44,295 bases of DNA, taken from the sequence record MZ501070. The stretch is one strand, 5' to 3'. Shown piece by piece: positions 1,949-44,165 of the stretch (the first letter of the stretch is position 1; the number at the start of each line of letters is the position of its first letter). The position numbers and the translations under genes were made by a program. Below the pieces are notes generated by a model that saw nothing but the letters and a program-made list of their open reading frames with translations, was not told where the DNA came from and searched no databases. Source of the stretch: Escherichia phage GeorgBuechner.

Positions 1949-3469
1949 ATGACCGTTAACGTTGACAACCAGCACCCGCTCTATGCGCGCATCGCGCCAG
2001 AGTGGAAAATGATCCGTGATTGTGTGGCAGGGGAGCGCGCCGTGAAGGCGTGCGGTCCTTTGTACCTGCCACACCCAGCCAGTGGCGACAACACTGACCC
2101 GAAAGCACGGGCGCGGTATAAGGCGTACAAGCAACGCGCTGTATTCCTGAACGCCACCGCCCGCACACTTAACGCACTGTTAGGCGTTGCCTTTGCTAAA
2201 CCGGTAAGTCTGGACCTTTCTGGGGCGATGGCTGACCTGATTGACGACGTAGACGGTAGCGGTATGCCGCTGCCGCAACTCCTGCGCGGTGCTATGTCGG
2301 AAGTGCTGCAATCTGGCCGCGCGGGCTTTATGGTTGACTACGACCGCCAGGCGCATTTTGACGAACTGGGTAACGTAGTGCCGCAGACCGCCGCTGAAAT
2401 GGCGGCGCACCGCCCGCTTATCCGCCTGTACACGGCAGAACAGATCATCAATTGGCGGCAAACCCACGGGGTCGATACGCTAATTGTGCTGAAGGAAACG
2501 GACGAAATCAGCACTGAAGACCCGGACGACTTCGCAAACCACGAAGTAACAATCTGGACCGAGCTTCGCATGATTAACGGTGCGGCACACGCCCGCCGCT
2601 GGTTTTATAACGCTGACACGTCCGAGGTGCAAATGGACTTGCCGCGTGGATTTACCCGCACCGACCTTGTGCCGCTGGTGGATGCCGCCGGTAAAGCGCT
2701 GACACAGCTTCCGTTTTGCTGGTGTGGCGCGGTGGACAACAACGCAACGCCTGACGCCGCCCCGCTGGCGGATATCGCATCCATCAACATTAAGCACTAC
2801 AACGCCGAAGCGGACGTCGCCGAGATTGCGCACATCGTGGGTCAACCTACCCTGGTGGCAATGGGCTTGACTCAATCATGGGCAGACAAGAACCTGAAGG
2901 GCGGCATTGCCCTCGGTGCAACTAAGGGCGTCATTCTGGGTCAGAACATGGACGCTAAACTGATTCAGGCCGAGGAGCGCAACTTGTCTGTTGCACTGTG
3001 TGAGCGCCGCGAATTGCAAATGGCTAAACTGGGCGCGGCCCTGGTCGAGAAGGGGACCGCACCTAAGACGGCAACCGAGGCGGCCTATGATGCGCAGACT
3101 GATAACAGTATCCTGTCGCTTATTGCCGGTAACGTTGAGAAGGCTTTCAACCGTGCGCTGCAAATCGTCCAGCTATTCACGGGTGACACCGCCGACCAGC
3201 GTGTGACGCTGAATAAGTTCTACACCGAGATCACGGTTGATGCGCAGCTTATGACCGCGATGATGTCTGGTGTGCAGACTGGTACGGTCCGCCTGGCTGA
3301 TTTCATCAAGTGGATGATGGCGCAGGGCGTTATCGACGACTCGCAAACCGTCGAGCAGGTGGAAGACGAATTGCGAAATCAGAATCCATTGCCTCAAATG
3401 TCCCCTGATGCGGTAGAATCTACCGAAGAAGACCCGGACAAGGTAGCGGACAATGGCGAAGACAATTAA
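1949..3469 (+). CDS. Portal protein
   Basis: 506 aa ORF between terminase and head morphogenesis gene; RBS AAGGAAAA upstream; acidic C-terminal tail typical of portals. Confidence 0.8.
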   Translation: MTVNVDNQHPLYARIAPEWKMIRDCVAGERAVKACGPLYLPHPASGDNTDPKARARYKAYKQRAVFLNATARTLNALLGVAFAKPVSLDLSGAMADLIDDVDGSGMPLPQLLRGAMSEVLQSGRAGFMVDYDRQAHFDELGNVVPQTAAEMAAHRPLIRLYTAEQIINWRQTHGVDTLIVLKETDEISTEDPDDFANHEVTIWTELRMINGAAHARRWFYNADTSEVQMDLPRGFTRTDLVPLVDAAGKALTQLPFCWCGAVDNNATPDAAPLADIASINIKHYNAEADVAEIAHIVGQPTLVAMGLTQSWADKNLKGGIALGATKGVILGQNMDAKLIQAEERNLSVALCERRELQMAKLGAALVEKGTAPKTATEAAYDAQTDNSILSLIAGNVEKAFNRALQIVQLFTGDTADQRVTLNKFYTEITVDAQLMTAMMSGVQTGTVRLADFIKWMMAQGVIDDSQTVEQVEDELRNQNPLPQMSPDAVESTEEDPDKVADNGEDN

Positions 3470-5003: not shown

Positions 5004-5768
5004 TTAGCGCGGAATACCGCAAATCTCGTTTAGTGTTTTCACGTCCAGCGCCACCGCCGTGGACTTCGGCTTGTCCGGGTAAGGAATGAACTGTTCCACT
5101 TCAGGCCACGCCTTGATCAGCTTCTTATCGGTATTGTGCATATCCAGCACGCCGGTAACAGTTAGTTTGAACGCGTCATACTTAGCACGCAACTCACGGC
5201 GGGCCTTGTCGTTACGGTCCAGGCGCTTACAGAAATCATGGTCCGCCGGGTAGTCTATACGACCGCGTGGTATATAGATCGGCAGCGCTTTCCCGTCGTC
5301 GTCGACTTCGCACACTGACGCTAACAAAATTTCCTCATACCCTGGCACAATATCGCCGAGATCGGGAGACAGTTTATTCATGTATTTATACTCCCAGTAT
5401 CCGCGATGTACTCGGAATCGGTGTCCGTCTCCGCTCAATGACACGGTACGGACGTTTCCACCTGCGTTGATTTCGAAAGTGGCGTCGTAAACGCTGCCTA
5501 TACCATATGGGTTGTCGGCGTCATGTCTATACGTCGCCTTATTGGTGTACACACAGACGCCGTACATCTTCGACGGGTCATCGCCGATTTCTTCAATGCG
5601 CTCACGTAGCTCGGCGAACGTATGAATGCCTTCCGGCATACAGTCCAGCGTAATGGCGTACGCCAGATTTCGAGAGTCCATCATGATTGATTTGGCTTCG
5701 GTCGCGATTTCGTGGTCGCGCAGGATGTTAGCCAGAATCTGGTTTTTAATGTCTTTTGTCAGTCTCAT
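5004..5768 (-). CDS. Hypothetical protein encoded in reverse orientation inside the head gene cluster (moron-like accessory gene)
   Basis: 254 aa from ATG at 5766-5768 (MRLTKDIKNQ...) with SD ACGAGGA; the longer track ORF 5004..6215 is a low-complexity N-terminal extension overlapping the scaffold gene and is rejected; no recognisable motifs. Confidence 0.6.
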   Translation of the reverse strand: MRLTKDIKNQILANILRDHEIATEAKSIMMDSRNLAYAITLDCMPEGIHTFAELRERIEEIGDDPSKMYGVCVYTNKATYRHDADNPYGIGSVYDATFEINAGGNVRTVSLSGDGHRFRVHRGYWEYKYMNKLSPDLGDIVPGYEEILLASVCEVDDDGKALPIYIPRGRIDYPADHDFCKRLDRNDKARRELRAKYDAFKLTVTGVLDMHNTDKKLIKAWPEVEQFIPYPDKPKSTAVALDVKTLNEICGIPR

Positions 5769-5790
5769 TTTTGTGTCCTCGTTGTTGGTG

Positions 5791-5813
5791 TGCAACCAAT
5801 ATATGCAACCAAT
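5791..5813. promoter_or_regulatory. Tandem pair of TGCAACCAAT motifs in divergent intergenic region
   Basis: TGCAACCAAT at 5791-5800 and 5804-5813; on the minus strand reads ATTGGTTGCA x2 directly upstream of the SD of gene 5004..5768. Confidence 0.5.
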
Positions 5814-5916
5814 ACGAGGATTGCAAGCGAATTTTGCGATTATTTTTATCGCTGATAATATTAGAAGCGTGAAGTCGAGCGGGTGGCCCGCTCTGCCACA
5901 ATCCCAGGGGGATAGC

Positions 5917-11066: not shown

Positions 11067-11383
11067 TTGAGGCGGCGCGACGCTTTTATGGCCCGCCGCC
11101 ACCCTCCGAAGATTTAGCCGCAAGTTTATGGGGTGCGGCCCCCGAAGATGTTTGTCCGCCTGTTGCGCTGTGGCCTGACAACGCGAAGGTAGTCGCAGTC
11201 TTCACAGATTGCTCCACGCAATGGCGCACCGGATTTGGTGGCGCATACGGCATAGACTACGGCGTGCTGGAGTGGCTATTTAAGATGCACGGTATCGAAA
11301 ACGAGCAGCGTGCGTTTAGAGATATCAAGCTAATGGAGCGAATCGCGCTTGATGAAATGGCGCAGCAGAACCCCGCACAATGA
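10704..11383 (+). CDS. Tail assembly chaperone frameshift product (gpGT-like), -1 programmed ribosomal frameshift at 11057-11063
   Basis: -1 frame is open from the slippery site A_AAA_AAC to TGA 11381-11383 (about 107 further codons, KKLIEAARRFYGPPPPSEDL...); conserved arrangement upstream of tape measure genes. Confidence 0.6.
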
Positions 11384-11384
11384 A

Positions 11385-11418
11385 GCGGGACAAAACGGGA
11401 CGTCCCGTTTTGTCCCGC
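11385..11418. repeat. 34 bp perfect palindrome GCGGGACAAAACGGGAC|GTCCCGTTTTGTCCCGC
   Basis: Read directly from sequence; an imperfect second copy lies at about 11462-11498; each is followed by a TGCATACCTAYTCA...TGCATAAACT segment. Confidence 0.8.
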
Positions 11419-11527
11419 ACCTGCAAAACTGCATACCTACTCACTCCCATTGCATAAACTCAAAACGGGACAAGCGGGACGTCCCGTTTTGTCCCGCCCT
11501 GTAAATGTGCATACCTATTCAGATTTC

Positions 11528-11702
11528 GTGCATAAACTAGGCGGGACAAAAAGCGGGACAGACAAGGGGCGGGACAAAGCGGGACAGCACCCCGTCCCCG
11601 CCAGTGCTGCCGCGGGTTTCAGCCGATCGGGACAAGCGGGACAAACCCCAGTCTTTCAGACTAGACGGGGGTCAACGGCCCCCCTCGTCTGAGACTGAAT
11701 AA
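11528..11702. repeat. Copy A of a duplicated ~175 bp non-coding element: GCGGGACA iterons plus terminal imperfect hairpin
   Basis: GCGGGACA boxes at irregular 10-16 bp spacing, then CCCAGTCTTTCAGACTAGACGGGGGTCAACGGCCCCCCTCGTCTGAGACTGAATAA; near-identical to 38938..39112. Confidence 0.8.
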
Positions 11703-21878: not shown

Positions 21879-21906
21879 GTATTACACCGCTCAATCAAGA
21901 ATGCAA
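21879..21906 (-). promoter_or_regulatory. Candidate sigma70-type promoter for the lipoprotein gene
   Basis: Minus strand reads TTGCAT - 16 nt - TAATAC about 30 nt upstream of the ATG; the -35 overlaps an ATTGGTTGCA motif. Confidence 0.35.
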
Positions 21907-21911
21907 CCAAT
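21902..21911. promoter_or_regulatory. TGCAACCAAT motif immediately upstream of the tail fibre SD
   Basis: aTGCAACCAATttACGAGGAtttagctATG; motif 17 nt from the fibre start codon. Confidence 0.5.
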
Positions 21912-21927
21912 TTACGAGGATTTAGCT

Positions 21928-23730
21928 ATGGCAGCGGGTACGCTCTCCGTAACGAACAATAGCAAGGCGGTAGTAGGGGTTGGCACAACGTTTACCGCGT
22001 TCAAGGCTGGCGACTTCTTATCACTGGTGGTGGGGCAAGTGCCTTATACAGTGGCGATCGCGTCCATTGAAAGCGCAACCGCTCTCACGCTAGTGTTGCC
22101 GTTCGATGGCCCTACGGCAACCGGACTTGCCTGGGATGGTATTAATCGCGATACCATGTCACTGGCAACGATGGGCGTTACCGTACAGGCGCAAAAAGCA
22201 TTGCGCTTGATGATTGCAGATGAAAACAACTGGCGTGCAATCTTCGGCGACGCTGAAGAAATCACAGTGACGTTACCTAACGGGCAAGTCATGCAGGGTA
22301 TGTCATGGGGATACCTGTCGGAATTGCTTAAGAACGTAGATCCGGTTGAGATGCGCGACCTCGCAGCGCAAGCCGAAGCATCGAAATCGGCAGCGCAAGG
22401 ATTTCGTAATGAGGCCGAAGGCTTCAAGAACGATACCAATACAATCAAGACGCAGACCAACCAGATTAAGGCGGATACGCAGGCTATCCACGACGCCACC
22501 AATACCATCAAGACGCAGACCAACCAGATTAAGACGGATACGCAGGCCATCAAAGACCAGACGAACCAGATCAAGACTGACACTGGCGTTATGAGGGACG
22601 AGGCCAACACCGCGAAGGCGGACGCGCAAGCTGCCAGCACTGCCGCACAGGAATTCCGCGACCAGGCAGAGGAGTGGGCGCAAAGCGTTAACGCGGATAA
22701 CCTGCTAACCAAATCCGGCAACCTGGCAGGACTTGCGGATAAAACTGAGTCGTGGGCAAACCTTATGCCTGCAGGCCCGCTACGAGTCGGCGGTGACCCC
22801 AATGCGGATCTGGATGCGGCAACTAAGCGTTGGACGTTGGGTTTATTAGACGCAGGCACGGCGAATACGTCGTGGTCGGTAATCAACGGCGACGCCACTA
22901 AACCGCCAGCGGGCACTACGGCAGACGGCGGAAGCATTATATCTGAATATCGTGTAGGTACTTCTGTACATTCGGAAGCAAAGCTGCGCGTCCGTGCGAC
23001 TATCGGCGGTGAGACTTACGCCCGCTTGGCGATCACCAACCTGGAGACGGCGCAGAGTTCGGGCATCGACTTTAACACCAAAGGCGAGATGACCTTGCCG
23101 GGCAAGTTTACGGTGAACAGTCCAGGGTCAGATGTCGTCGGCAGCTTGTCCTTAAGCCGCGGGTCTTACCTGCAATTTGCATTCGAACCGTACTACACCG
23201 TAGCCGAAACCGTGCCGAACGACGTTGTAGGCGGTAGGACGTTCTTCGAACCGGCACTAGTCAAGAGCGGCACTCGATATTTTCGCCTGTTTATGCGACG
23301 TAAGGATGGGAACCGTACCGGCGAAATTATGCTTAACTTCCCGACTACCGTATCGGGGACTATCGCGCTGCAAGGCACATCCGGCCGCGAGTATAAGAAA
23401 GATATTGCCGATGCGGACGCAAGCGAAGCTATGGACCGCATTAACAGCCAGCGCCTTGTTAACTTCGTGTATAAGGATGATGAGCAGGCCCGCCAGCGCT
23501 TCGGTATTATCGCCGAAGAAGCGGAGTTAATTGCGCCGCAGTACGTTAAACACCACGAGTTCCCGATCGAGGATATTCTCGACGAAGACGGCAACAAGAT
23601 CGGGGAGAAGATGACGGACCGCCCATCCATCGACGTTAACCCGATCGTAATGGACTTGATGGGATGTGTTCAATATCTCAATAAGCAGGTGGAGGATTTG
23701 AAGGCCGAGATCGCGGCGTTGAAGAAATAA
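21928..23730 (+). CDS. Tail fibre protein with C-terminal S74-type intramolecular chaperone domain
   Basis: 600 aa from ATG 21928 (track ORF starts at 21901 inside the motif); internal 63 bp tandem repeat encoding NTIKTQTNQIK...; C-terminal GTSGREYKKDIADADASEAMDRINSQRLVNFVYKDD resembles fibre chaperone domains. Confidence 0.8.
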   Translation: MAAGTLSVTNNSKAVVGVGTTFTAFKAGDFLSLVVGQVPYTVAIASIESATALTLVLPFDGPTATGLAWDGINRDTMSLATMGVTVQAQKALRLMIADENNWRAIFGDAEEITVTLPNGQVMQGMSWGYLSELLKNVDPVEMRDLAAQAEASKSAAQGFRNEAEGFKNDTNTIKTQTNQIKADTQAIHDATNTIKTQTNQIKTDTQAIKDQTNQIKTDTGVMRDEANTAKADAQAASTAAQEFRDQAEEWAQSVNADNLLTKSGNLAGLADKTESWANLMPAGPLRVGGDPNADLDAATKRWTLGLLDAGTANTSWSVINGDATKPPAGTTADGGSIISEYRVGTSVHSEAKLRVRATIGGETYARLAITNLETAQSSGIDFNTKGEMTLPGKFTVNSPGSDVVGSLSLSRGSYLQFAFEPYYTVAETVPNDVVGGRTFFEPALVKSGTRYFRLFMRRKDGNRTGEIMLNFPTTVSGTIALQGTSGREYKKDIADADASEAMDRINSQRLVNFVYKDDEQARQRFGIIAEEAELIAPQYVKHHEFPIEDILDEDGNKIGEKMTDRPSIDVNPIVMDLMGCVQYLNKQVEDLKAEIAALKK

Positions 23731-23736
23731 ATAGAA

Positions 23737-23758
23737 GGGGCCATGCGGCCCCTTTTTC
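23737..23758. terminator. Bidirectional terminator between fibre gene and minus-strand early cluster
   Basis: GGGGCC-atgc-GGCCCC followed by TTTTT. Confidence 0.7.
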
Positions 23759-24333
23759 TAGTTTGAGTTTTCCCAGTCCATTTTGCGCCGCACTAGCGGG
23801 CTTTCGTAATATTCCTTGCCCTCAACTTCCACTAAGGGCCAGTCATTAACAATGACGTATGGTTCCGCGATATCTTCAATAACGCCGTGCGCGCTTTGTG
23901 GCCCGAACGATACGCCCACCAGGATAACACCGGCAACTCTACGGGTGAGATACTCGCGAGCGCAACGTGCTTCCACCAATCCGCGACGGATGCCACTGGT
24001 GGCCTTAACCTCGTAGGTCCAGACGGCATCGATCACATGCTCTCGGAAGTCGGGGCCAGATTTAACCTTGCGCTTACCGACCATGATGATATCGCCGCGG
24101 TCGATGGTATTGGCGCTGAACAAGCCGGTACGCATGAGCAAGCCTTGCGGGATACAACTGCGCCCGCCTGCTTGCCCTTCAAGGTACATGCCCGCAAACA
24201 TTTCGCCCAGCACACCGACCAGTCGGCTTTGCTTGCACGCGTCGGACTTTAAGCGCCATTGGTCAAACTCGATGCTTGCTATCATTGCCGCCAGGTGGAA
24301 TTGTTTACCGGATATTTCATATTCGCCGTACAT
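23758..24333 (-). CDS. Hypothetical protein (possible PD-(D/E)xK-like fold, weak)
   Basis: 191 aa; SD GAGGA; segment GDIIMVG ... YEVKA could be a D ... E-x-K nuclease motif (inference only). Confidence 0.5.
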   Translation of the reverse strand: MYGEYEISGKQFHLAAMIASIEFDQWRLKSDACKQSRLVGVLGEMFAGMYLEGQAGGRSCIPQGLLMRTGLFSANTIDRGDIIMVGKRKVKSGPDFREHVIDAVWTYEVKATSGIRRGLVEARCAREYLTRRVAGVILVGVSFGPQSAHGVIEDIAEPYVIVNDWPLVEVEGKEYYESPLVRRKMDWENSN

Positions 24334-24375: not shown

Positions 24376-24897
24376 TTATTTCAGTGCGCTACGTACCAGT
24401 GTTTTTTCCATGTTGCGGAAGTCTTCCGGCGTCATGAGGATCTTGGACCCATCCTCGCCAGTGAGCACGACCATCGGCTGGACGTCCTGGGATACGACGC
24501 CGAAATTGGCGGCTTTGACAGTCTTGCCCGCCGATGCCGAAGGATGCCACGTTCCGCCGGTGGCGATGGGCCAACCTTTAAGGCTGTCGTATTGCGCTGC
24601 CGTTGTATCGACCTGAATCTCATCATGCACGGTCATGTGGGATTCGCCCAGCAAGGCCGCATACGCTACCAGGTCGACGATATTGTCTTCCTGGTGCTTA
24701 CGGTGCTGGCGCACCAGCTTCAGGCAGATCAAGAAGGTCCAGGCTTCTTGCTCGGTAAGGTCGCGACCGGTAAGCGCGTTAAACACGGCGGCAATTTGTT
24801 TCGCGCTGCGTTCCTCTTTCGCGTTGTCATAGCCGTTTTCTTTTCCGCGCTGTTCCATAGTGGTGGCGGCGTTTTTGCAGTATTCGTATGCTTTCAT
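24376..24897 (-). CDS. Hypothetical protein
   Basis: 173 aa ORF; upstream leader contains hairpin GTTGGGGGC-aatacc-GCCCCCAAC (24916-24939) and motif palindrome. Confidence 0.5.
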   Translation of the reverse strand: MKAYEYCKNAATTMEQRGKENGYDNAKEERSAKQIAAVFNALTGRDLTEQEAWTFLICLKLVRQHRKHQEDNIVDLVAYAALLGESHMTVHDEIQVDTTAAQYDSLKGWPIATGGTWHPSASAGKTVKAANFGVVSQDVQPMVVLTGEDGSKILMTPEDFRNMEKTLVRSALK

Positions 24898-24950
24898 GAT
24901 GTTTTTCCTTTTTAGTTGGGGGCGGTATTGCCCCCAACGAGTTAACTATA

Positions 24951-24988
24951 TTGCAACCAACCTATTGGTTGCAAGTGAATTTTGCAAC
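24951..24988. promoter_or_regulatory. Inverted-repeat motif TTGCAACCAA-ccta-TTGGTTGCAA followed by conserved TTGCAAGTGAATTTTGCAAC element
   Basis: Perfect 10 bp arms; the downstream 20-mer matches 5821-5840 (TTGCAAGCGAATTTTGCGAT) at 17/20; on the minus strand TTGCAA-18 nt-TATAGT could act as a promoter for gene 24376..24897. Confidence 0.45.
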
Positions 24989-25121
24989 GTTAATTGCGTA
25001 AATATTCGGGACCAAATCGCCACACGCCCGACGAATTGCCGCGATGTTCTTCGGGCAGTCCTCAATGATGACCAGTTCAGACACGTCCGCGTAGCAGACC
25101 ATTTTGAACACGGCGCACGCC

Positions 25122-25316
25122 TTAAACTCTGGCGGAAAACTTGTTACACACAAGATGCCAATTTGCGGTTATGACAAGCCAGCCGGTAAGGTCCATACCC
25201 AGGATATATTCTGGACGTGACACTCGCTTCACACGATCGCGGCGCGGGTCGATGTTATAGTCTCTTTGCATTCGGTCTACTACCGCAGGGTCGCGGTCAA
25301 CGATTAAGATATTCAA
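25122..25316 (-). CDS. Possible small protein with TTG start
   Basis: 64 aa; strong SD AAGGAG 6 nt upstream of TTG at 25314-25316; overlaps end of Dam gene by 20 nt. Confidence 0.25.
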   Translation of the reverse strand: MNILIVDRDPAVVDRMQRDYNIDPRRDRVKRVSRPEYILGMDLTGWLVITANWHLVCNKFSARV

Positions 25317-26476: not shown

Positions 26477-26530
26477 CGTGTTGTCTCCAGGTATTAAAAA
26501 GGGCGTCCAAACCGGACACCCTTAATGTAC

Positions 26531-26557
26531 TGCAACCAATCTAATTATGCAACCAAT
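26531..26557. promoter_or_regulatory. Tandem pair of TGCAACCAAT motifs between minus-strand genes
   Basis: TGCAACCAAT at 26531-26540 and 26548-26557; on the minus strand followed by an imperfect hairpin plus T-run and the SD of gene 26234..26476. Confidence 0.5.
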
Positions 26558-29489: not shown

Positions 29490-29768
29490 CTACGCGACCA
29501 ATTCAGCAACCAATAAATCACAGTCGGCTATGTTGTCGATAACGCGAACGTCAGCACCGCGGCGGGCCATTCGCTCATGTTCACGTACCTGGTGCGGCTT
29601 TGGTTTTCCTCCGGGGCGCTTCACTTCTACGAATACCACTTTGCCGTTTATGATTATAATCAGGTCGGGCGCGCCTGAGCGCCCCTCCCATATCACCTTA
29701 CGGCAGAATCCGCCAACCGCTTTCACCAGCTTCATCAGGTGACTTTGTACCTTGCCTTCTGGTGTCAT
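29490..29768 (-). CDS. VRR-NUC domain nuclease
   Basis: 92 aa; GAPDLIIIINGKVVFVEVKRPGGKPKPHQ matches the D ... E-V-K core of VRR-NUC proteins; start overlaps polymerase stop. Confidence 0.65.
   Translation of the reverse strand: MTPEGKVQSHLMKLVKAVGGFCRKVIWEGRSGAPDLIIIINGKVVFVEVKRPGGKPKPHQVREHERMARRGADVRVIDNIADCDLLVAELVA
29495..29514. promoter_or_regulatory. GCGACCAAT / GCAACCAAT motif pair at the 3' end of the VRR-NUC gene
   Basis: GCGACCAATtcaGCAACCAAT overlapping the last codons of 29490..29768. Confidence 0.35.
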
Positions 29769-32284: not shown

Positions 32285-33019
32285 TTAACGGCGGCGACGT
32301 TTACGTGGTGCTTCGTCTTCGTCGTCGTCCTCATCTTCATCATCGCGTGGTTTACGACGTTTGCGAGGTTTTTCATCTTCCTCATCGTCGTCATCATCGC
32401 GGCGCTTGGACTTTTTGGACTTGCGCGGTTTGTCGTCTTCGTCTTCGTCATCGTTGTCCAGGTCTTCGTCGGAACATGAAGACCCGCCACCTCCGAAGGC
32501 TTCGCCGTCTTCACGGAATCGCAGACCCAGCAAACCCGCCCCGAGTCCCTTGCCGTTGGTATTGTTCCACGCCCAAATATCAAGGGACACGTTGCAATAA
32601 CAACCGGAGTAGATCTCCTGGCCTTCAATCTCGTCGCCGTCGATGGTCAGACCCTGTTCAGTCTGCTTCTCGCCTAGTGACGTTTGAATGATTGGCTGTT
32701 TGAACGATTTGGCGTTGATATACAACATGCCTTCGAATTCTTCGGTTACTTCATCGCGCTCGTCGCCATCGCGAACCGCACATTCCTTAGAATCCTGGGC
32801 GTAGTGGCGGTCCATCCACTTATCGGCATTCTTCTCGGATTTCAGCTTGTCGGTGAGCACTGCGCGCGCTGCCGCTTCCACTTTGTCCACCTGCGGATCT
32901 TCTTTATCGAGAAGAATCACGGCACGGTATGCCGGTTTTTGTCCATCCTGTTTAGGGGTATCACGTTCCCAGATTTTCAGGAAGCATACGCGCACATTTT
33001 TCAGGTTGACTTTAGCCAT
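32285..33019 (-). CDS. ssDNA-binding protein-like (gp2.5 / DUF2815-like) with repetitive charged C-terminal tail
   Basis: 244 aa from ATG 33017-33019 (MAKVNLKNVRVCF...) with SD GAGGAA; C-terminal ~60 aa are three acidic-block/basic-block repeats ending RKRRRR. Confidence 0.5.
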   Translation of the reverse strand: MAKVNLKNVRVCFLKIWERDTPKQDGQKPAYRAVILLDKEDPQVDKVEAAARAVLTDKLKSEKNADKWMDRHYAQDSKECAVRDGDERDEVTEEFEGMLYINAKSFKQPIIQTSLGEKQTEQGLTIDGDEIEGQEIYSGCYCNVSLDIWAWNNTNGKGLGAGLLGLRFREDGEAFGGGGSSCSDEDLDNDDEDEDDKPRKSKKSKRRDDDDDEEDEKPRKRRKPRDDEDEDDDEDEAPRKRRRR

Positions 33020-33076
33020 TTTCCAATTCCTCATTTTCACATGTATCGGGGTTATTGGAAGCCACCCCGTTCGGCT

Positions 33077-33100
33077 TGGTTGCCAATTTACTTGGTTGCG
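33077..33100. promoter_or_regulatory. Pair of TTGGTTGC motifs upstream of SSB-like gene
   Basis: TTGGTTGCC at 33077-33085 and TTGGTTGCG at 33092-33100. Confidence 0.45.
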
Positions 33101-35978: not shown

Positions 35979-36008
35979 ATAATAGATTGGTTGCAGGATG
36001 GGCGTCAA
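35979..36008 (-). promoter_or_regulatory. Candidate leftward early promoter
   Basis: Minus strand TTGACG - 18 nt - TATTAT; the spacer contains TGCAACCAAT; about 190 nt upstream of the first leftward gene. Confidence 0.4.
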
Positions 36009-36185: not shown

Positions 36186-36515
36186 ATGAATGTAAACGAC
36201 GCAATCGAAATGTTAACGAAGACTGTTTGCAGTGAGACAAGCCGGTCATGGGCATATACCGATGCCGTGGGGGCGGTGTTATTTGAAATCGAACGACTGC
36301 GGCTTACCGAAAAAGAATTGCGCGCGAAGCTGGAATTACTCAACGGTACGGCAGCCAGCAAGCTGCAAAAGCACAATGAAGAAATGGAAGAATACAAAAA
36401 ACAGGTTATCCGTTTGCGCGAGGAGGGAAAGTCATGGGCGATGATCGCTGAGCTAACCGGAATTAATCAGAGCACCGTGCGCTCATGGGTACGCAATAAT
36501 AAAACTTCTAAGTAA
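36186..36515 (+). CDS. Putative transcriptional regulator with C-terminal helix-turn-helix
   Basis: 109 aa; C-terminal KSWAMIAELTGINQSTVRSWVRN is HTH-like; central coiled-coil-like segment; first gene of rightward operon. Confidence 0.5.
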   Translation: MNVNDAIEMLTKTVCSETSRSWAYTDAVGAVLFEIERLRLTEKELRAKLELLNGTAASKLQKHNEEMEEYKKQVIRLREEGKSWAMIAELTGINQSTVRSWVRNNKTSK

Positions 36516-38790: not shown

Positions 38791-38865
38791 ATGCTGCGCG
38801 CATTGGTTGCCGATATGGGGATTCCCATATCGCTAAAAGATTAAATCTTGCGCGCATTGGTTGCC
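38779..38865. repeat. 32 bp direct repeat x2 flanking a palindrome, overlapping the primase stop
   Basis: TAAAAGATTAAATGCTGCGCGCATTGGTTGCC and TAAAAGATTAAATCTTGCGCGCATTGGTTGCC (2 mismatches) with GATATGGGgattCCCATATC between them; a third ATTGGTTGCC at 38891-38900. Confidence 0.8.
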
Positions 38866-38937
38866 ATTTTGAGTGTTTTTAGCTGGTCGTATTGGTTGCC
38901 GTGTAGTGTAAATATAATGCATAGTTATGCAGTTTTA

Positions 38938-39112
38938 GTGCATAAAGTAAGCGGGACAAAAAGCGGGACAAACAAGGGGCGGGACAAAGCGGGACAGCAC
39001 CCCCGTCCCGCCCCGGATGGCGCGGCTTCCAGAGGAGCGGGACAGGCGGGACAAACCCCAGTCTTTCAGACTAGACGGGGGTCAATGGCCCCCCTCGTCT
39101 GAGACTGAATAA
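38938..39112. repeat. Copy B of the duplicated ~175 bp GCGGGACA-iteron plus hairpin element
   Basis: Near-identical to 11528..11702 with a diverged central ~40 bp; ends in the same imperfect hairpin. Confidence 0.8.
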
Positions 39113-39171
39113 AATCCGGGGATTGCAAAATACACGGCAGCATGATGCGAAGCGCTGTCGTTGGTGAACTA

Positions 39172-39303
39172 GGCAACCAATGCGAGTTGCATTATGCTGA
39201 GTGAAAATGCAGTTTGCAGCCACAGCAGATAGCGATCAACTTTTTCATACGCATGATTAATATTGGTTGCATTCAGCCTGGCACCCTGCTAGATTGGTTG
39301 CAC
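39172..39303. promoter_or_regulatory. Cluster of three GCAACCAAT / ATTGGTTGCA motifs upstream of gene 39326
   Basis: GGCAACCAAT 39172-39181, ATTGGTTGCA 39262-39271, ATTGGTTGCAC 39294-39303 followed by CACCAACGAGAGGA and ATG. Confidence 0.5.
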
Positions 39304-39325
39304 ACCAACGAGAGGACCAAACAAA

Positions 39326-39814: not shown

Positions 39815-40084
39815 ATGAGCCGTAGGCGCGCAAAACAGCTTTCGTGGAGCATCCCACTGCATTGCATACGAATATGGGCTAAGAATGCGGTTGAGGGCGA
39901 ATCGGTATTCTGGTGCTATCGCGACGATGTGAAGCCGTTGACGCAGACTCGCTACTTGCACCAGTTCGCAGCACAACACGATTTCAGGGTGCGGACTTCC
40001 TTGCAACCAATGGGAATACGTATTACATTACGCCGGAAGCCCGCCGTTGAGCGGGCAGGCAAACACTGGAGACTGAGCAAATGA
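39815..40084 (+). CDS. Hypothetical basic protein
   Basis: 89 aa, Arg/Lys-rich; SD AAGGGG. Confidence 0.45.
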   Translation: MSRRRAKQLSWSIPLHCIRIWAKNAVEGESVFWCYRDDVKPLTQTRYLHQFAAQHDFRVRTSLQPMGIRITLRRKPAVERAGKHWRLSK

Positions 40085-42826: not shown

Positions 42827-42860
42827 CGCAACCAATTATCAGACTATACTGCGACCAATC
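42827..42860. promoter_or_regulatory. Tandem pair CGCAACCAAT / GCGACCAAT upstream of a strong SD
   Basis: CGCAACCAATtatcagactatactGCGACCAATcaACGAGAGGAG followed by ATG 42881. Confidence 0.5.
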
Positions 42861-43022: not shown

Positions 43023-44165
43023 ATGCACCCGCAAACTAAAATCACCGACGAGCAATTGATCGCTGAGCTGCAATCCGGCACTACCTCGAAAGATATTGCT
43101 AAGAAGTACGGTCTTTCCCTCCGAAATGTATACATGCGAAAAGCCCGCCTGTCGAAGAAAGGGATTGGTCACGGCAACGATGCCGTAATCCGTAAGCGCG
43201 TTGCCGATGGTTTTGGCGTTAAGCGTGTCTCAGCCCTGGTGCGCGGAAATGGCGAAGAGGTCATGTCGTGGGTTATCACTGAGCAGGACAAGGAGCGCCA
43301 GCTTGAAGCAATGCGCGCCGTTGTCGAGGGTATGAACAGCGAAATCACACCGGCAGCACCAGTAAGCGCCCCGCCAGTCCCGGTCCAGGCGCTCGACCTG
43401 CTCAACCTGTACACTGTGTCAGACTTCCACCTGGGCATGTTGGCCTGGGGCGAGGAGACTGGCGAAGACTGGGATATGGCGATTGCCGAAGACTTGTTCT
43501 ACCGCTGGTTTGTCGAAGCCTTCGCACGCGCACCGGACGCAGGCACTGCCGTTATCAATATCCTCGGAGATATGGCGCATTTTGATAGCCTCGATGCCGT
43601 CACTCCTGCCAGCGGTCACGTACTGGACGCAGACACCCGCTACCAGAAGCTGGTCCGCTACATGATTCGCATGGTGCGCAACGTGGTGGAACTGGCGCTG
43701 CAAAAGCACCACAAAGTCAAACTGCTAATCGTCCAGGGGAATCATGACGAGTCTGGCATGATTTGGCTGGCTGAAATGTTCAATACGCTGTATGAGAACG
43801 AGCCGCGCGTTGATGTGGACACGTCACCGGACGTATACAAAATGGTGCAGCACGGCAAGACCACGCTGTTCTTCCACCACGGGCACAAAGCGCGCTTCGA
43901 CGCTATTGAAACCGTCATGATTTCCAAATTCAGACAGGCTTTCGGGTCCAGCGAGTACAGCTACGCACACATAGGCCACTTGCACCACCAGAAGATTGTA
44001 GAATCCCGCAACATGATTGTTGAACAGCACAGGACGCTCGCAGCGAAAGACGCCTACGCCAGTCGTGGCGGTTGGATGTCCGGTCGCAGCGCCAACGTCA
44101 TTACCTACAGCGCCAACTACGGCGAAGTAGCGCGCTTAACCATTAGCCCGGAAATGTTGAAGTAA
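43023..44165 (+). CDS. HTH domain fused to calcineurin-like metallophosphoesterase
   Basis: 380 aa; N-terminal HTH-like TSKDIAKKYGLSLRNVYMRKARL; phosphoesterase motifs SDFHLG, GDMAHF, GNHDE, HHGH. Confidence 0.6.
   Translation: MHPQTKITDEQLIAELQSGTTSKDIAKKYGLSLRNVYMRKARLSKKGIGHGNDAVIRKRVADGFGVKRVSALVRGNGEEVMSWVITEQDKERQLEAMRAVVEGMNSEITPAAPVSAPPVPVQALDLLNLYTVSDFHLGMLAWGEETGEDWDMAIAEDLFYRWFVEAFARAPDAGTAVINILGDMAHFDSLDAVTPASGHVLDADTRYQKLVRYMIRMVRNVVELALQKHHKVKLLIVQGNHDESGMIWLAEMFNTLYENEPRVDVDTSPDVYKMVQHGKTTLFFHHGHKARFDAIETVMISKFRQAFGSSEYSYAHIGHLHHQKIVESRNMIVEQHRTLAAKDAYASRGGWMSGRSANVITYSANYGEVARLTISPEMLK

Follow-up and report, generated by a model that had tools for sequence, protein, structure and literature searches.

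What would a perfect inverted repeat be doing at the end of one gene and just ahead of the next, followed at once by a second, GC-rich inverted repeat? The question is raised by positions 24,898 to 25,121 of Escherichia phage GeorgBuechner (sequence record MZ501070), within the whole stretch of 44,295 nucleotides that we analysed and that we call the window. Here, we propose that positions 24915-24988 of the minus strand form an internal promoter of the sigma-70 type, lying under overlapping sites for a phage factor and followed by a leader stem-loop, an explanation to which we give a probability of roughly 60%. The predicted promoter would drive the last two leftward genes, and the 9-mer GCAACCAAT, of which the palindrome holds two copies, would be a general promoter-associated protein-binding site of the phage. 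The elements of the site and the genes around it are the following.

23733-23756: terminator-like hairpin in the terminator scan, at the end of the two-gene unit
23758..24333, minus strand: second of the two genes served by the predicted promoter
24376..24897, minus strand: gene downstream of the site, 173 amino acids, DUF6378 (Pfam E = 8.6e-10), phrog_9871
24905..24911, minus strand: Shine-Dalgarno region AAGGAAA, in an A-rich stretch upstream of ATG 24897, unpaired in the fold
24915-24938, minus strand: stem-loop GTTGGGGGC-aatacc-GCCCCCAAC (RNA GUUGGGGGC-AAUACC-GCCCCCAAC), 9 bp
24938, minus strand: predicted transcription start, at the base where the stem opens, 7 nt past the -10, placed by the usual -10 to +1 distance alone
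24945..24950, minus strand: predicted -10 TATAGT, 5 of 6 matches to TATAAT, 18 bp downstream of the -35, from the consensus scan
24951-24974: palindrome TTGCAACCAA-ccta-TTGGTTGCAA with 10-bp arms, by direct sequence check
24953..24961, plus strand: motif copy 1, GCAACCAAc, in the left palindrome arm (24951-24960)
24964..24972, minus strand: motif copy 2, GCAACCAAT, in the right palindrome arm (24965-24974)
24969..24974, minus strand: predicted -35 TTGCAA, 4 of 6 matches to TTGACA, from the consensus scan, invariant in relatives
24975..24988, minus strand: A/T-rich block GTTGCAAAATTCAC, part of a 20-mer shared with another site, at about -37 to -50 and inside the 3' end of the upstream open reading frame (ORF)
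24962..25153, minus strand: upstream ORF, a 63-codon C-terminal remnant of a "putative phosphatase" gene, with a TAG stop at 24962-24964

The palindrome lies exactly where the initial annotation, made from the letters alone, had placed it. Perfect inverted repeats with arms of at least 10 bp and spacers of at most 8 occur at 2 loci in the window, against a mean of 0.53 in dinucleotide shuffles. On the transcribed minus strand, motif copy 1 reads TTGGTTGCAA and stops 1 nt short of the -10; copy 2 overlaps the -35 hexamer as well as the end of the upstream ORF (codons TGC AAC CAA TAG). The two copies thus cover the predicted promoter from -35 to -13, as operators that overlap a core promoter do, with the centre of the dyad at about -24.5, between -35 and -10. 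The promoter sequence that had been noticed on the minus strand, TTGCAA-18-TATAGT, is present; it agrees with the sigma-70 hexamers at 9 of 12 positions, a modest match, and its spacer falls within 16-18 bp. The consensus scan showed no enrichment overall (2 promoters found, 2.7 expected from shuffles) and carries little weight alone. A sigma-54 promoter was rejected on spacing. MerR-type promoters are similar to this one in having a dyad centred between -35 and -10 and a spacer over the optimal length; they differ in that their spacers measure 19-20 bp rather than 18, and in that the other sites of the motif here have other geometries. We rejected this type on its spacer length and on the lack of any MerR-family protein among the scanned phage proteins.

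What does the 20-mer that extends from the right arm mean? As had been claimed, 24969-24988 is identical to 5821-5840 at 17 of 20 positions, which on its own is weakly significant given all the 20-mers in the region. Local alignment of 24940-25000 with 5780-5850 extends the likeness to 30 identities in 39 columns, with a score of 19 that was reached in none of 1000 shuffles (mean 7.8, standard deviation 1.3, maximum 13), and 5776-5846 is the top-scoring place in the genome for the query 24940-25000. The initial annotation had regarded the matched site as lying upstream of the scaffold gene. It belongs instead to a leftward promoter upstream of 5004..5768, the Nmad5 gene (Pfam Nmad5, E = 6e-56), which runs opposite to its neighbours, with a divergent region at 5769-5916, and must therefore have a promoter of its own. 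This promoter, at 5792..5826 on the minus strand, reads TTGCAA (5826-5821)-17-TATATT (5803-5798) and carries two TTGGTTGCA copies, one at 5805-5812 adjoining the -10 and one at 5792-5799 over the -10 and +1. For the scaffold gene itself, a more plausible promoter is TTGCGA (5834-5839) with TAATAT further right. The 20-mer would then be explained as the -35 and the upstream A/T block of a leftward promoter that is paralogous to that of Nmad5. The block GTTGCAAAATTCAC, which is UP-element-like, is shared with 5827-5840. Relatives have synonymous changes within the 20-mer (GCA to GCG, TTC to TTT), so its upstream half is less constrained than the motif.

The site was also compared across relatives, in 21 distinct versions drawn from GenBank, IMG/VR and metagenomes. 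None of them departs from TTGCAA at the -35 or from TTGCAACCAA, motif copy 2 as read on the transcribed strand, and copy 1 is nearly invariant. The -10 appears as TATAGT, TATATT or TATCTT, fixed at positions 1, 2, 3 and 6 and variable at 4 and 5; to judge by these alignments, the variation is confined to the weak positions, as it should be in a working -10. The TAG stop of the upstream ORF coincides with the 4-nt spacer of the palindrome, as seen from translation, from comparison with phage TheodorHerzl and from annotation, and, in a correction to the initial annotation, the left arm and the 20-mer fall within the 3' end of this ORF. Its final codons, ACT TGC AAC CAA TAG, have no synonymous change in any relative while the preceding codons vary freely, so the motif is constrained beyond its coding function. 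In the window, the ORF has also lost its beginning: a deletion junction at 25136-25168 marks the removal of some 340-370 bp relative to TheodorHerzl, including the N-terminal ~100 residues of the phosphatase with their DxD motif. The remnant looks like a pseudogene, judged by this loss, and its 3' end, bearing the promoter and the motif, is still intact.

The symmetry of the palindrome has fared otherwise. In one relative, L003, the -10-proximal copy is flipped, producing the direct repeat TTGCAACCAATAATGCAACCAAC with the 1-nt distance to the -10 kept, and in two others, L007 and L008, the 4-nt spacer is inverted. Dyad symmetry is thus not a conserved property of this family of sites, as it would be in operators of the lambda, 434 and P22 type. 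The proposal of a site for a dimeric protein holds as far as the perfect dyad in the window goes, and it fails for symmetry as a conserved property, given the direct repeat in the L003 ortholog and the varying distances between motif pairs elsewhere. The pattern in relatives would argue for two individually recognised protein sites, as opposed to a cruciform or a rigid symmetric dimer as ligand. It also bears on the idea that the inverted repeats act as structures, the palindrome being a weak terminator of plus-strand antisense transcripts and the GC-rich hairpin a terminator, pause or processing site for read-through. The plus-strand palindrome, with GTGAATTTTG after it, does appear in the list of the terminator scan, and a comparable minus-strand hairpin at 26490-26514 has a T-run after it. 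Yet only 4 of the 10 pairs in the palindrome stem are G-C, the direct repeat of L003 cannot fold while both of its motif copies are kept, some 18 further copies of the 9-mer have no palindromic partner, and the hairpin itself lacks the tail of a terminator (see below). We consider this explanation very improbable.

Is the motif a local feature or a property of the genome? The conserved unit is an asymmetric 9-mer, GCAACCAA(T), also given as GCAACCAAT, with CCAAT as its best-conserved part. On both strands of the window, the 8-mer GCAACCAA has 20 copies where 1.9 are expected (standard deviation 1.3, maximum 5 in 100 shuffles), and TTGCAACCAA with at most one mismatch has 14 occurrences against 3.2 expected; ATTGGTTGC ranks second by frequency among the 9-mers of the genome. 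The commonest 9-mer in the window is AACGGCAGC, with 17 copies. Non-coding DNA, by a hand-curated gene list, makes up 7.6% of the window and holds 16 of the 20 copies of GCAACCAA (binomial p = 4.5e-15); of the four "coding" copies, two do no more than overlap the final codons of an upstream gene. Motif sites recur at equivalent genomic places in TheodorHerzl, in Sodalis phage SO-1, in the divergent CHD5UKE2 and in L176, a more distant metagenomic contig. Most copies come in pairs (5792/5805, 24953/24965, 26532/26549, 29494/29506, 33076/33092, 39263/39294 and 42828/42851), with start-to-start spacings of 13, 12, 17, 12, 16, 31 and 23 bp, respectively. The pairs are mostly direct repeats, and only the one at 24953/24965 is inverted.

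In about ten promoter-like regions, the copies fall on core elements, over the -35, in the spacer, over the -10 or at +1. Clusters of the motif there sit on arrangements of a -35, 16-18 bp and a -10 that read toward the downstream gene, and both orientations occur. Besides the Nmad5 promoter, the motif-bearing promoters and regions are the following.

24974, minus strand: TTGCAA-18-TATAGT, the promoter considered here, with copies from -35 to -13
26526..26556, minus strand: TTGCAT-17-TACATT, with two TTGGTTGCA copies, at 26532-26539 adjoining the -10 and at 26549-26556 over the -35
29494..29513, plus-strand coordinates, read on the minus strand as TTGCTG-17-TATAGT: the pair GCGACCAA / GCAACCAA over the -35 and in the spacer
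33076..33099, minus strand: TTGACC-17-TAAATT, ahead of the SSB-like gene 32285..33040, with one copy adjoining the -10 and the other at +1
35987..35994, minus strand: leftward early promoter TTGACG-18-TATTAT, with a copy in the spacer, adjoining the -10
39263, plus strand: TTGCAT-17-TAGATT, with copies over the -35 and over the -10 and +1, upstream of gene 39326
42828..42858, plus strand: TTGACT-18-TATACT, with the pair (GCAACCAA, GCGACCAA) in the spacer and at +1
38803..39301: long non-coding "region B", downstream of the helicase-primase gene, with six copies, at 38803, 38857, 38892, 39173, 39263 and 39294, of which the last two are those of the 39263 promoter

The site at 42828 directly follows a terminator and lies upstream of gene 43023..44165, a near-consensus promoter ahead of the structural genes. 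Three leftward promoters, those at 26549, 24974 and 5826, have the common layout TTGCAW-N7-8-TTGGTTGCA-N1-2-TAnAnT. At the core of the motif, TTGCAA reads alike on both strands and resembles a -35, so that either orientation can supply the -35 hexamer.

We suggest that a phage-encoded, sequence-specific protein bound at these sites would compete with RNA polymerase and thereby repress or modulate the promoters in a coordinated way. Steric competition is the most economical mechanism because the copies overlap core promoter elements in both orientations and in varying registers. The same positions can be examined for the opposite sign. In this alternative, the motif would be a positive promoter element, and a helix-turn-helix (HTH) protein bound to the -35-like TTGCAACCAA / TTGGTTGCA would recruit the host RNA polymerase to weak TTGCAW promoters, as an activator or a substitute for sigma region 4. 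The -35 hexamers at 26549, 29506, 39263, 24974 and 5826 are indeed TTGCAA, TTGCAT or TTGCTG, poor matches to TTGACA, and a motif copy supplies the -35 in four of these five, the TTGCAA at 5826 being without the CCAA/TTGG extension. The fixed layout of the three leftward promoters would fit as well, as would the match of our best candidate for the binding protein, described below, to Sigma70_r4_2 (E = 2.3e-6). Against this, at the near-consensus promoters of the TTGAC type (42828, 33092 and 35987) the copies occupy the spacer or the +1 and are oppositely oriented, a placement at which activators do not act; the -10-proximal copy is flipped in L003; and the candidate protein matches HTH_23 with the same quality as the sigma domain, its fold hits being generic small HTH domains. 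Activation by the motif is in our view unlikely, and we retain competition with RNA polymerase as the preferred mechanism.

Several further observations concern individual copies and their surroundings. On the minus strand at 26477-26557, a hairpin AAGGGTGTCC-GGTTT-GGACGCCCTT with a T-run (hairpin 26490-26514, in the region 26520-26490) begins 1 nt after the -10, and the predicted start of the 26549 promoter thus lies inside a terminator stem; the hairpin near 26520 could end upstream transcripts while letting new ones through. At 5785-5801 and 39292-39308, the +1-proximal copy and a partial copy form a small inverted repeat, TTGGT-TGCAC-ACCAA, followed by AAC(A)ACGAGGA, and the two leaders are near-identical. 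A perfect TTGCAACCAAT copy at 40003-40010, within ORF 39815..40084, is kept in SO-1, TheodorHerzl and CHD5UKE2, and may point to a promoter inside this ORF that serves the genes starting at 40081 and beyond. The tail-fibre ORF opens at ATG 21901, where ATGCAACCAA is a conserved motif copy (21901-21930 of the window). To judge from SO-1, TheodorHerzl and CHD5UKE2, in which the same arrangement is found, the true start of the tail-fibre gene is probably ATG 21928, after the Shine-Dalgarno sequence ACGAGGA.

The accumulation of copies in region B raises a different possibility, that the motif is mainly an iteron for a replication-origin-binding HTH protein and that the promoter copies are secondary, as auxiliary sites that couple replication to transcription or that load or organise the protein along the genome. 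Six copies lie in this 535-bp region, just downstream of the HTH and helicase-primase genes, where they flank repeats of another kind, GCGGGACAA. A parallel may be seen in L024, an unrelated viral contig (IMG/VR contig 3300038463_000167, GC content 56%), which has at least 12 tandem GATGCAACCAATTA iterons in one intergenic region. Three facts speak against this possibility: of the 20 exact copies, 14 are found elsewhere than in region B, the majority of these 14 overlap core promoter elements at positions kept across the genus, and region A, which has GCGGGACAA repeats as B does, holds no copy of GCAACCAA. An iteron role as the main one thus seems quite improbable to us. A broader version is that GCAACCAAT is the element of a Dhillonvirus-specific HTH master factor that acts on nearly all promoters, with TTGCAA mimicking a -35, and that also flanks a probable origin in region B, coupling or timing transcription and replication. 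We regard it as tentative, clearly less probable than the proposal of promoters under competing phage-factor sites.

Regions A (11380-11700) and B (38940-39110) deserve description in their own right. Both are non-coding and share the GCGGGACAA(A) iterons, of which there are 11 copies genome-wide. Also listed among their common features are a perfect 15+15 palindrome, GGGACAAAACGGGAC|GTCCCGTTTTGTCCC, at 11388-11417, and a block of about 55 nt, CCCCAGTCTTTCAGACTAGACGGGGGTCAAyGGCCCCCCTCGTCTGAGACTGAATAA. The annotation of SO-1 gives both as repeat regions, and they are possibly related to the origin or to packaging. As for contig L024, its iterons occupy a region of ~480 bp (2720-3200) upstream of a gene with an HTH-looking N-terminus. 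The adjacent protein was rejected as a homolog of the Dhillonvirus HTH protein, with no BLASTP alignment and an hhalign probability of 0.35%, and the iterons may be convergent or coincidental.

Could the binding protein come from the host? The phage has no RNA polymerase and relies on host transcription, so an Escherichia coli transcription factor or nucleoid protein that recognises GCAACCAAT has to be considered, and the part GTTGCA of the motif may be similar to half-sites of some operators of the LacI family, such as those of CytR. Three observations point elsewhere. The full palindrome occurs in 6 of 185,579 representative bacterial genomes, none of them Escherichia, Shigella or Salmonella; the best-conserved part, CCAAT, lies outside the CytR-like octamer; and Jerseyviruses, related coliphages that share many genes with this phage, lack the motif. 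A host protein as the ligand is, for these reasons, a highly improbable explanation. The occurrences of the palindrome outside the phage, in about 14 unrelated sequence families and the 6 genomes from scans of metagenomes and genomes, have no protein in common with the phage and were treated as chance or convergent, not as signs of a common regulator; one family is a plastid minisatellite (L163), and another palindrome sits between convergent genes on a small enterobacterial contig (L181). In viral contigs, the motif pair GCAACCAA-N0-14-TTGGTTGC was mostly a matter of chance among the matches listed, and enrichment of the motif was limited, among these same matches, to Dhillonvirus loci and the one odd contig L024.

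Which phage protein, then, would bind the motif? The best candidate has the following position.

36186..36515, plus strand: candidate motif-binding protein, 109 amino acids, encoded by the gene that opens the rightward early operon and is directly followed by the helicase-primase gene

In a Pfam scan of 39 phage proteins, this protein gave the clearest match to a DNA-binding domain (HTH_23, 5.9e-7; Sigma70_r4_2; HTH_28, 1.3e-5). Its AlphaFold (AF2) model, with a predicted local distance difference test score (pLDDT) of 84, has a 59-residue helix that runs into a C-terminal three-helix HTH, which superposes at 0.4-1.5 angstrom on the DNA-binding domains of resolvase, LuxR/GerE, IstA and DeoR. 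Hits of the fold search in the PDB are to generic small HTH domains, with E about 1 and 33-46 aligned residues, not significant for so small a domain; the hits confirm a DNA-binding HTH in the predicted model and are silent on specificity. The family is restricted to the genus, with 153 phage records, all of them Dhillonvirus-like, and 24 clusters among 5.8 billion proteins. The HTH hardly varies in this family, and the N-terminal part has been swapped in several lineages. All examined relatives that have the 109-amino-acid protein also have the motif. In L176, the leader of the HTH gene itself holds a perfect motif copy, of which the equivalent in the window is the degenerate TTAACCAAC, and the proposed repression or damping possibly includes autoregulation of this gene.

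The only other hint of an HTH was a sub-threshold GerE match at the N-terminus of the 380-amino-acid metallophosphatase encoded by 43023..44165, which has 2061 phage records. The Jerseyvirus SETP13, a Salmonella phage, encodes a 75%-identical version of this protein and no 109-amino-acid protein, and its counts are 0 for CAACCAAT and 4 for GCAACCAA. We rejected the metallophosphatase as the binder, since SETP13 has this close copy and lacks the motif. The phyletic pattern points to the genus-restricted coiled-coil/HTH protein of 109 amino acids as the likeliest binder.

The second inverted repeat raises a question of its own: what would a hairpin do so close to the start of a transcript? The initial annotation had described a GC-rich stem-loop in the leader, placed one base too high at 24916-24939 instead of 24915-24938, and had named RNA structure prediction as a check. 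Prediction returned a strong hairpin, with a folding energy of -19.3 kcal/mol and a z score of -4.6, and none of 200 shuffles folded as well. The hairpin is kept in 21 of the 21 versions of the region, with a six-base loop that is usually AAUACN, energies from -8.5 to -19.3 kcal/mol and, in the relatives, 5-7 G-C pairs in the stem. Stem pairs were counted by loop anchoring; MAFFT gapped the 3' arm of the hairpin inconsistently. In this count, pairs 1-3 and 5 are invariant, and pair 4 is G-C in 16 versions, A-U in 3 and A.C in 2, which would represent one compensatory path with its intermediate; the support from covariation is real and, as the alignments stand, thin. The outer stem is lineage-specific with partial compensation, being GUU/AAC in the window and CGC/GCG or GCGU/ACGC elsewhere.

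The hairpin is not followed by a U-tract (it runs into UAAAAAGGAAAAA in the window and into similar tails in every relative), so it does not qualify as an intrinsic terminator, and it is absent from the list of the terminator scan. Nothing in Rfam 15 matched, either at the gathering threshold across the whole window or at E <=1 in 24700-25200. In the window the stem opens 7 nt past the -10; in relatives the core stem does so 9-10 nt past it. Given these distances, a transcript from the predicted promoter would start at or within ~3 nt of the stem, in the window at about 24938, the foot of the G-C stem-loop. The 5'-terminal stabilising stem-loops known in E. coli mRNA decay, for instance that of ompA, show such a geometry. 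Most plausibly, the stem-loop would be a stabiliser at the 5' end, protecting against RNase E and 5'-end-dependent decay. In transcripts that read through from upstream, insulation of the A-rich ribosome-binding site is a further possible role. The combination that the initial annotation had seen here, of promoter, operator and structured leader, is favoured by conservation and context; the working of the promoter and of the operator is what we infer from them.

These results should be weighed against several points that run contrary to our proposal. The predicted promoter matches the consensus at only 9 of 12 positions with an 18-bp spacer, in a scan that did no better than shuffles. The -35-like character of TTGCAA means that conservation of the motif may partly reflect contacts of RNA polymerase rather than of a separate factor, and the variable spacing and orientation of the copies are ill-suited to a simple dimeric repressor. 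If every promoter carries the motif, including that at 42828 with its two sites, a pure repressor leaves temporal control unexplained. What ties the HTH protein to the motif is co-occurrence alone, within a single genus. As regards the leader, covariation of the hairpin rests essentially on one pair, most stem positions being invariant, and the terminator-looking hairpin at 26520 means that the leader hairpins of the phage may not share one role. Finally, the literature searched yields no transcript, start-site or binding data for any Dhillonvirus.

The position of the site in the genome is as follows. A 2.6-kb slice around it matched 157 phage records at 88-93% identity, nearly all of them Escherichia phages of the genus Dhillonvirus, and the gene order agrees with those of the annotated phages TheodorHerzl and SO-1. 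By these comparisons, the window is a near-complete genome of a Dhillonvirus, an HK578-like siphophage of E. coli. Plus-strand structural genes extend to ~23.7 kb. A long leftward block of genes for replication and nucleotide metabolism, in which the site lies, runs from ~36.2 kb down to 23.76 kb, and the rightward early and lysis block begins at 36.19 kb. The annotation shows no integrase or immunity module, and the phage is a virulent siphophage without an RNA polymerase, a sigma factor or a known regulator of its own.

How does this arrangement compare with known systems? The operators OR and OL of lambda and P22 and the sites of p4, the multi-promoter switch protein of phi29, are, like those described here, short sites over the -35, spacer, -10 or +1 of promoters for the host RNA polymerase; in these phages too, several promoters per genome share a site, and a small phage HTH protein is the likely ligand in our case. 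The differences are that the unit here is asymmetric, occurs singly or in pairs with variable spacing and orientation, and belongs to a virulent phage, and that the candidate protein of 109 amino acids has no detectable homology to CI, Cro or p4, its binding being predicted from sequence. A second parallel is found in mycobacteriophage L5, in which the "stoperators" of gp71 are reportedly asymmetric 13-bp sites scattered through the genome. Both systems have an asymmetric site of ~9-13 bp in ~20-30 copies concentrated in short intergenic regions, and the many intergenic asymmetric copies in the window are of the stoperator type in this respect. By analogy, such dispersed asymmetric copies would imply a monomer-like recognition of each by the HTH. 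The L5 sites have one orientation relative to transcription and act as roadblocks within the operons of a temperate phage, whereas here both orientations occur and the copies lie over promoter cores: those at 33092 and 42828 differ in orientation, with respect to the downstream gene, from those at 26549 and 39263, and 24951/24965 has both. For the leader, the nearest likeness is the hairpin in the 5' untranslated region of ompA, a stabilising stem-loop at the 5' end, of a kind found in E. coli and phage mRNAs. The hairpin here is similarly a stable G-C stem predicted 0-3 nt from the 5' end and followed by an unstructured, A-rich ribosome-binding site. It differs from the ompA case in that its 5' end is predicted and in that it would also be present in any read-through transcript.

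In the literature searched, the motif strings occur only in unrelated papers, and we found nothing relevant on the promoters of Dhillonvirus or HK578, on the motif or on the protein. Most likely, this is a real and apparently undescribed control region of an ordinary phage kind, in which operators overlap a promoter and a hairpin stands in the leader. Dhillonviruses, common among the phages of E. coli, are used in the BASEL collection, in studies of defence systems and in phage engineering. For this widely used genus, the gain is one of local knowledge and not of a new principle. A 9-bp motif found genus-wide at about ten promoter regions provides a ready promoter map, and the motif together with a single candidate regulator makes up a testable regulon. 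Both may be put to use in genome annotation, such as the choice of the start codon of the tail fibre (21928), in the selection of insertion sites and in the supply of native promoters for engineering.

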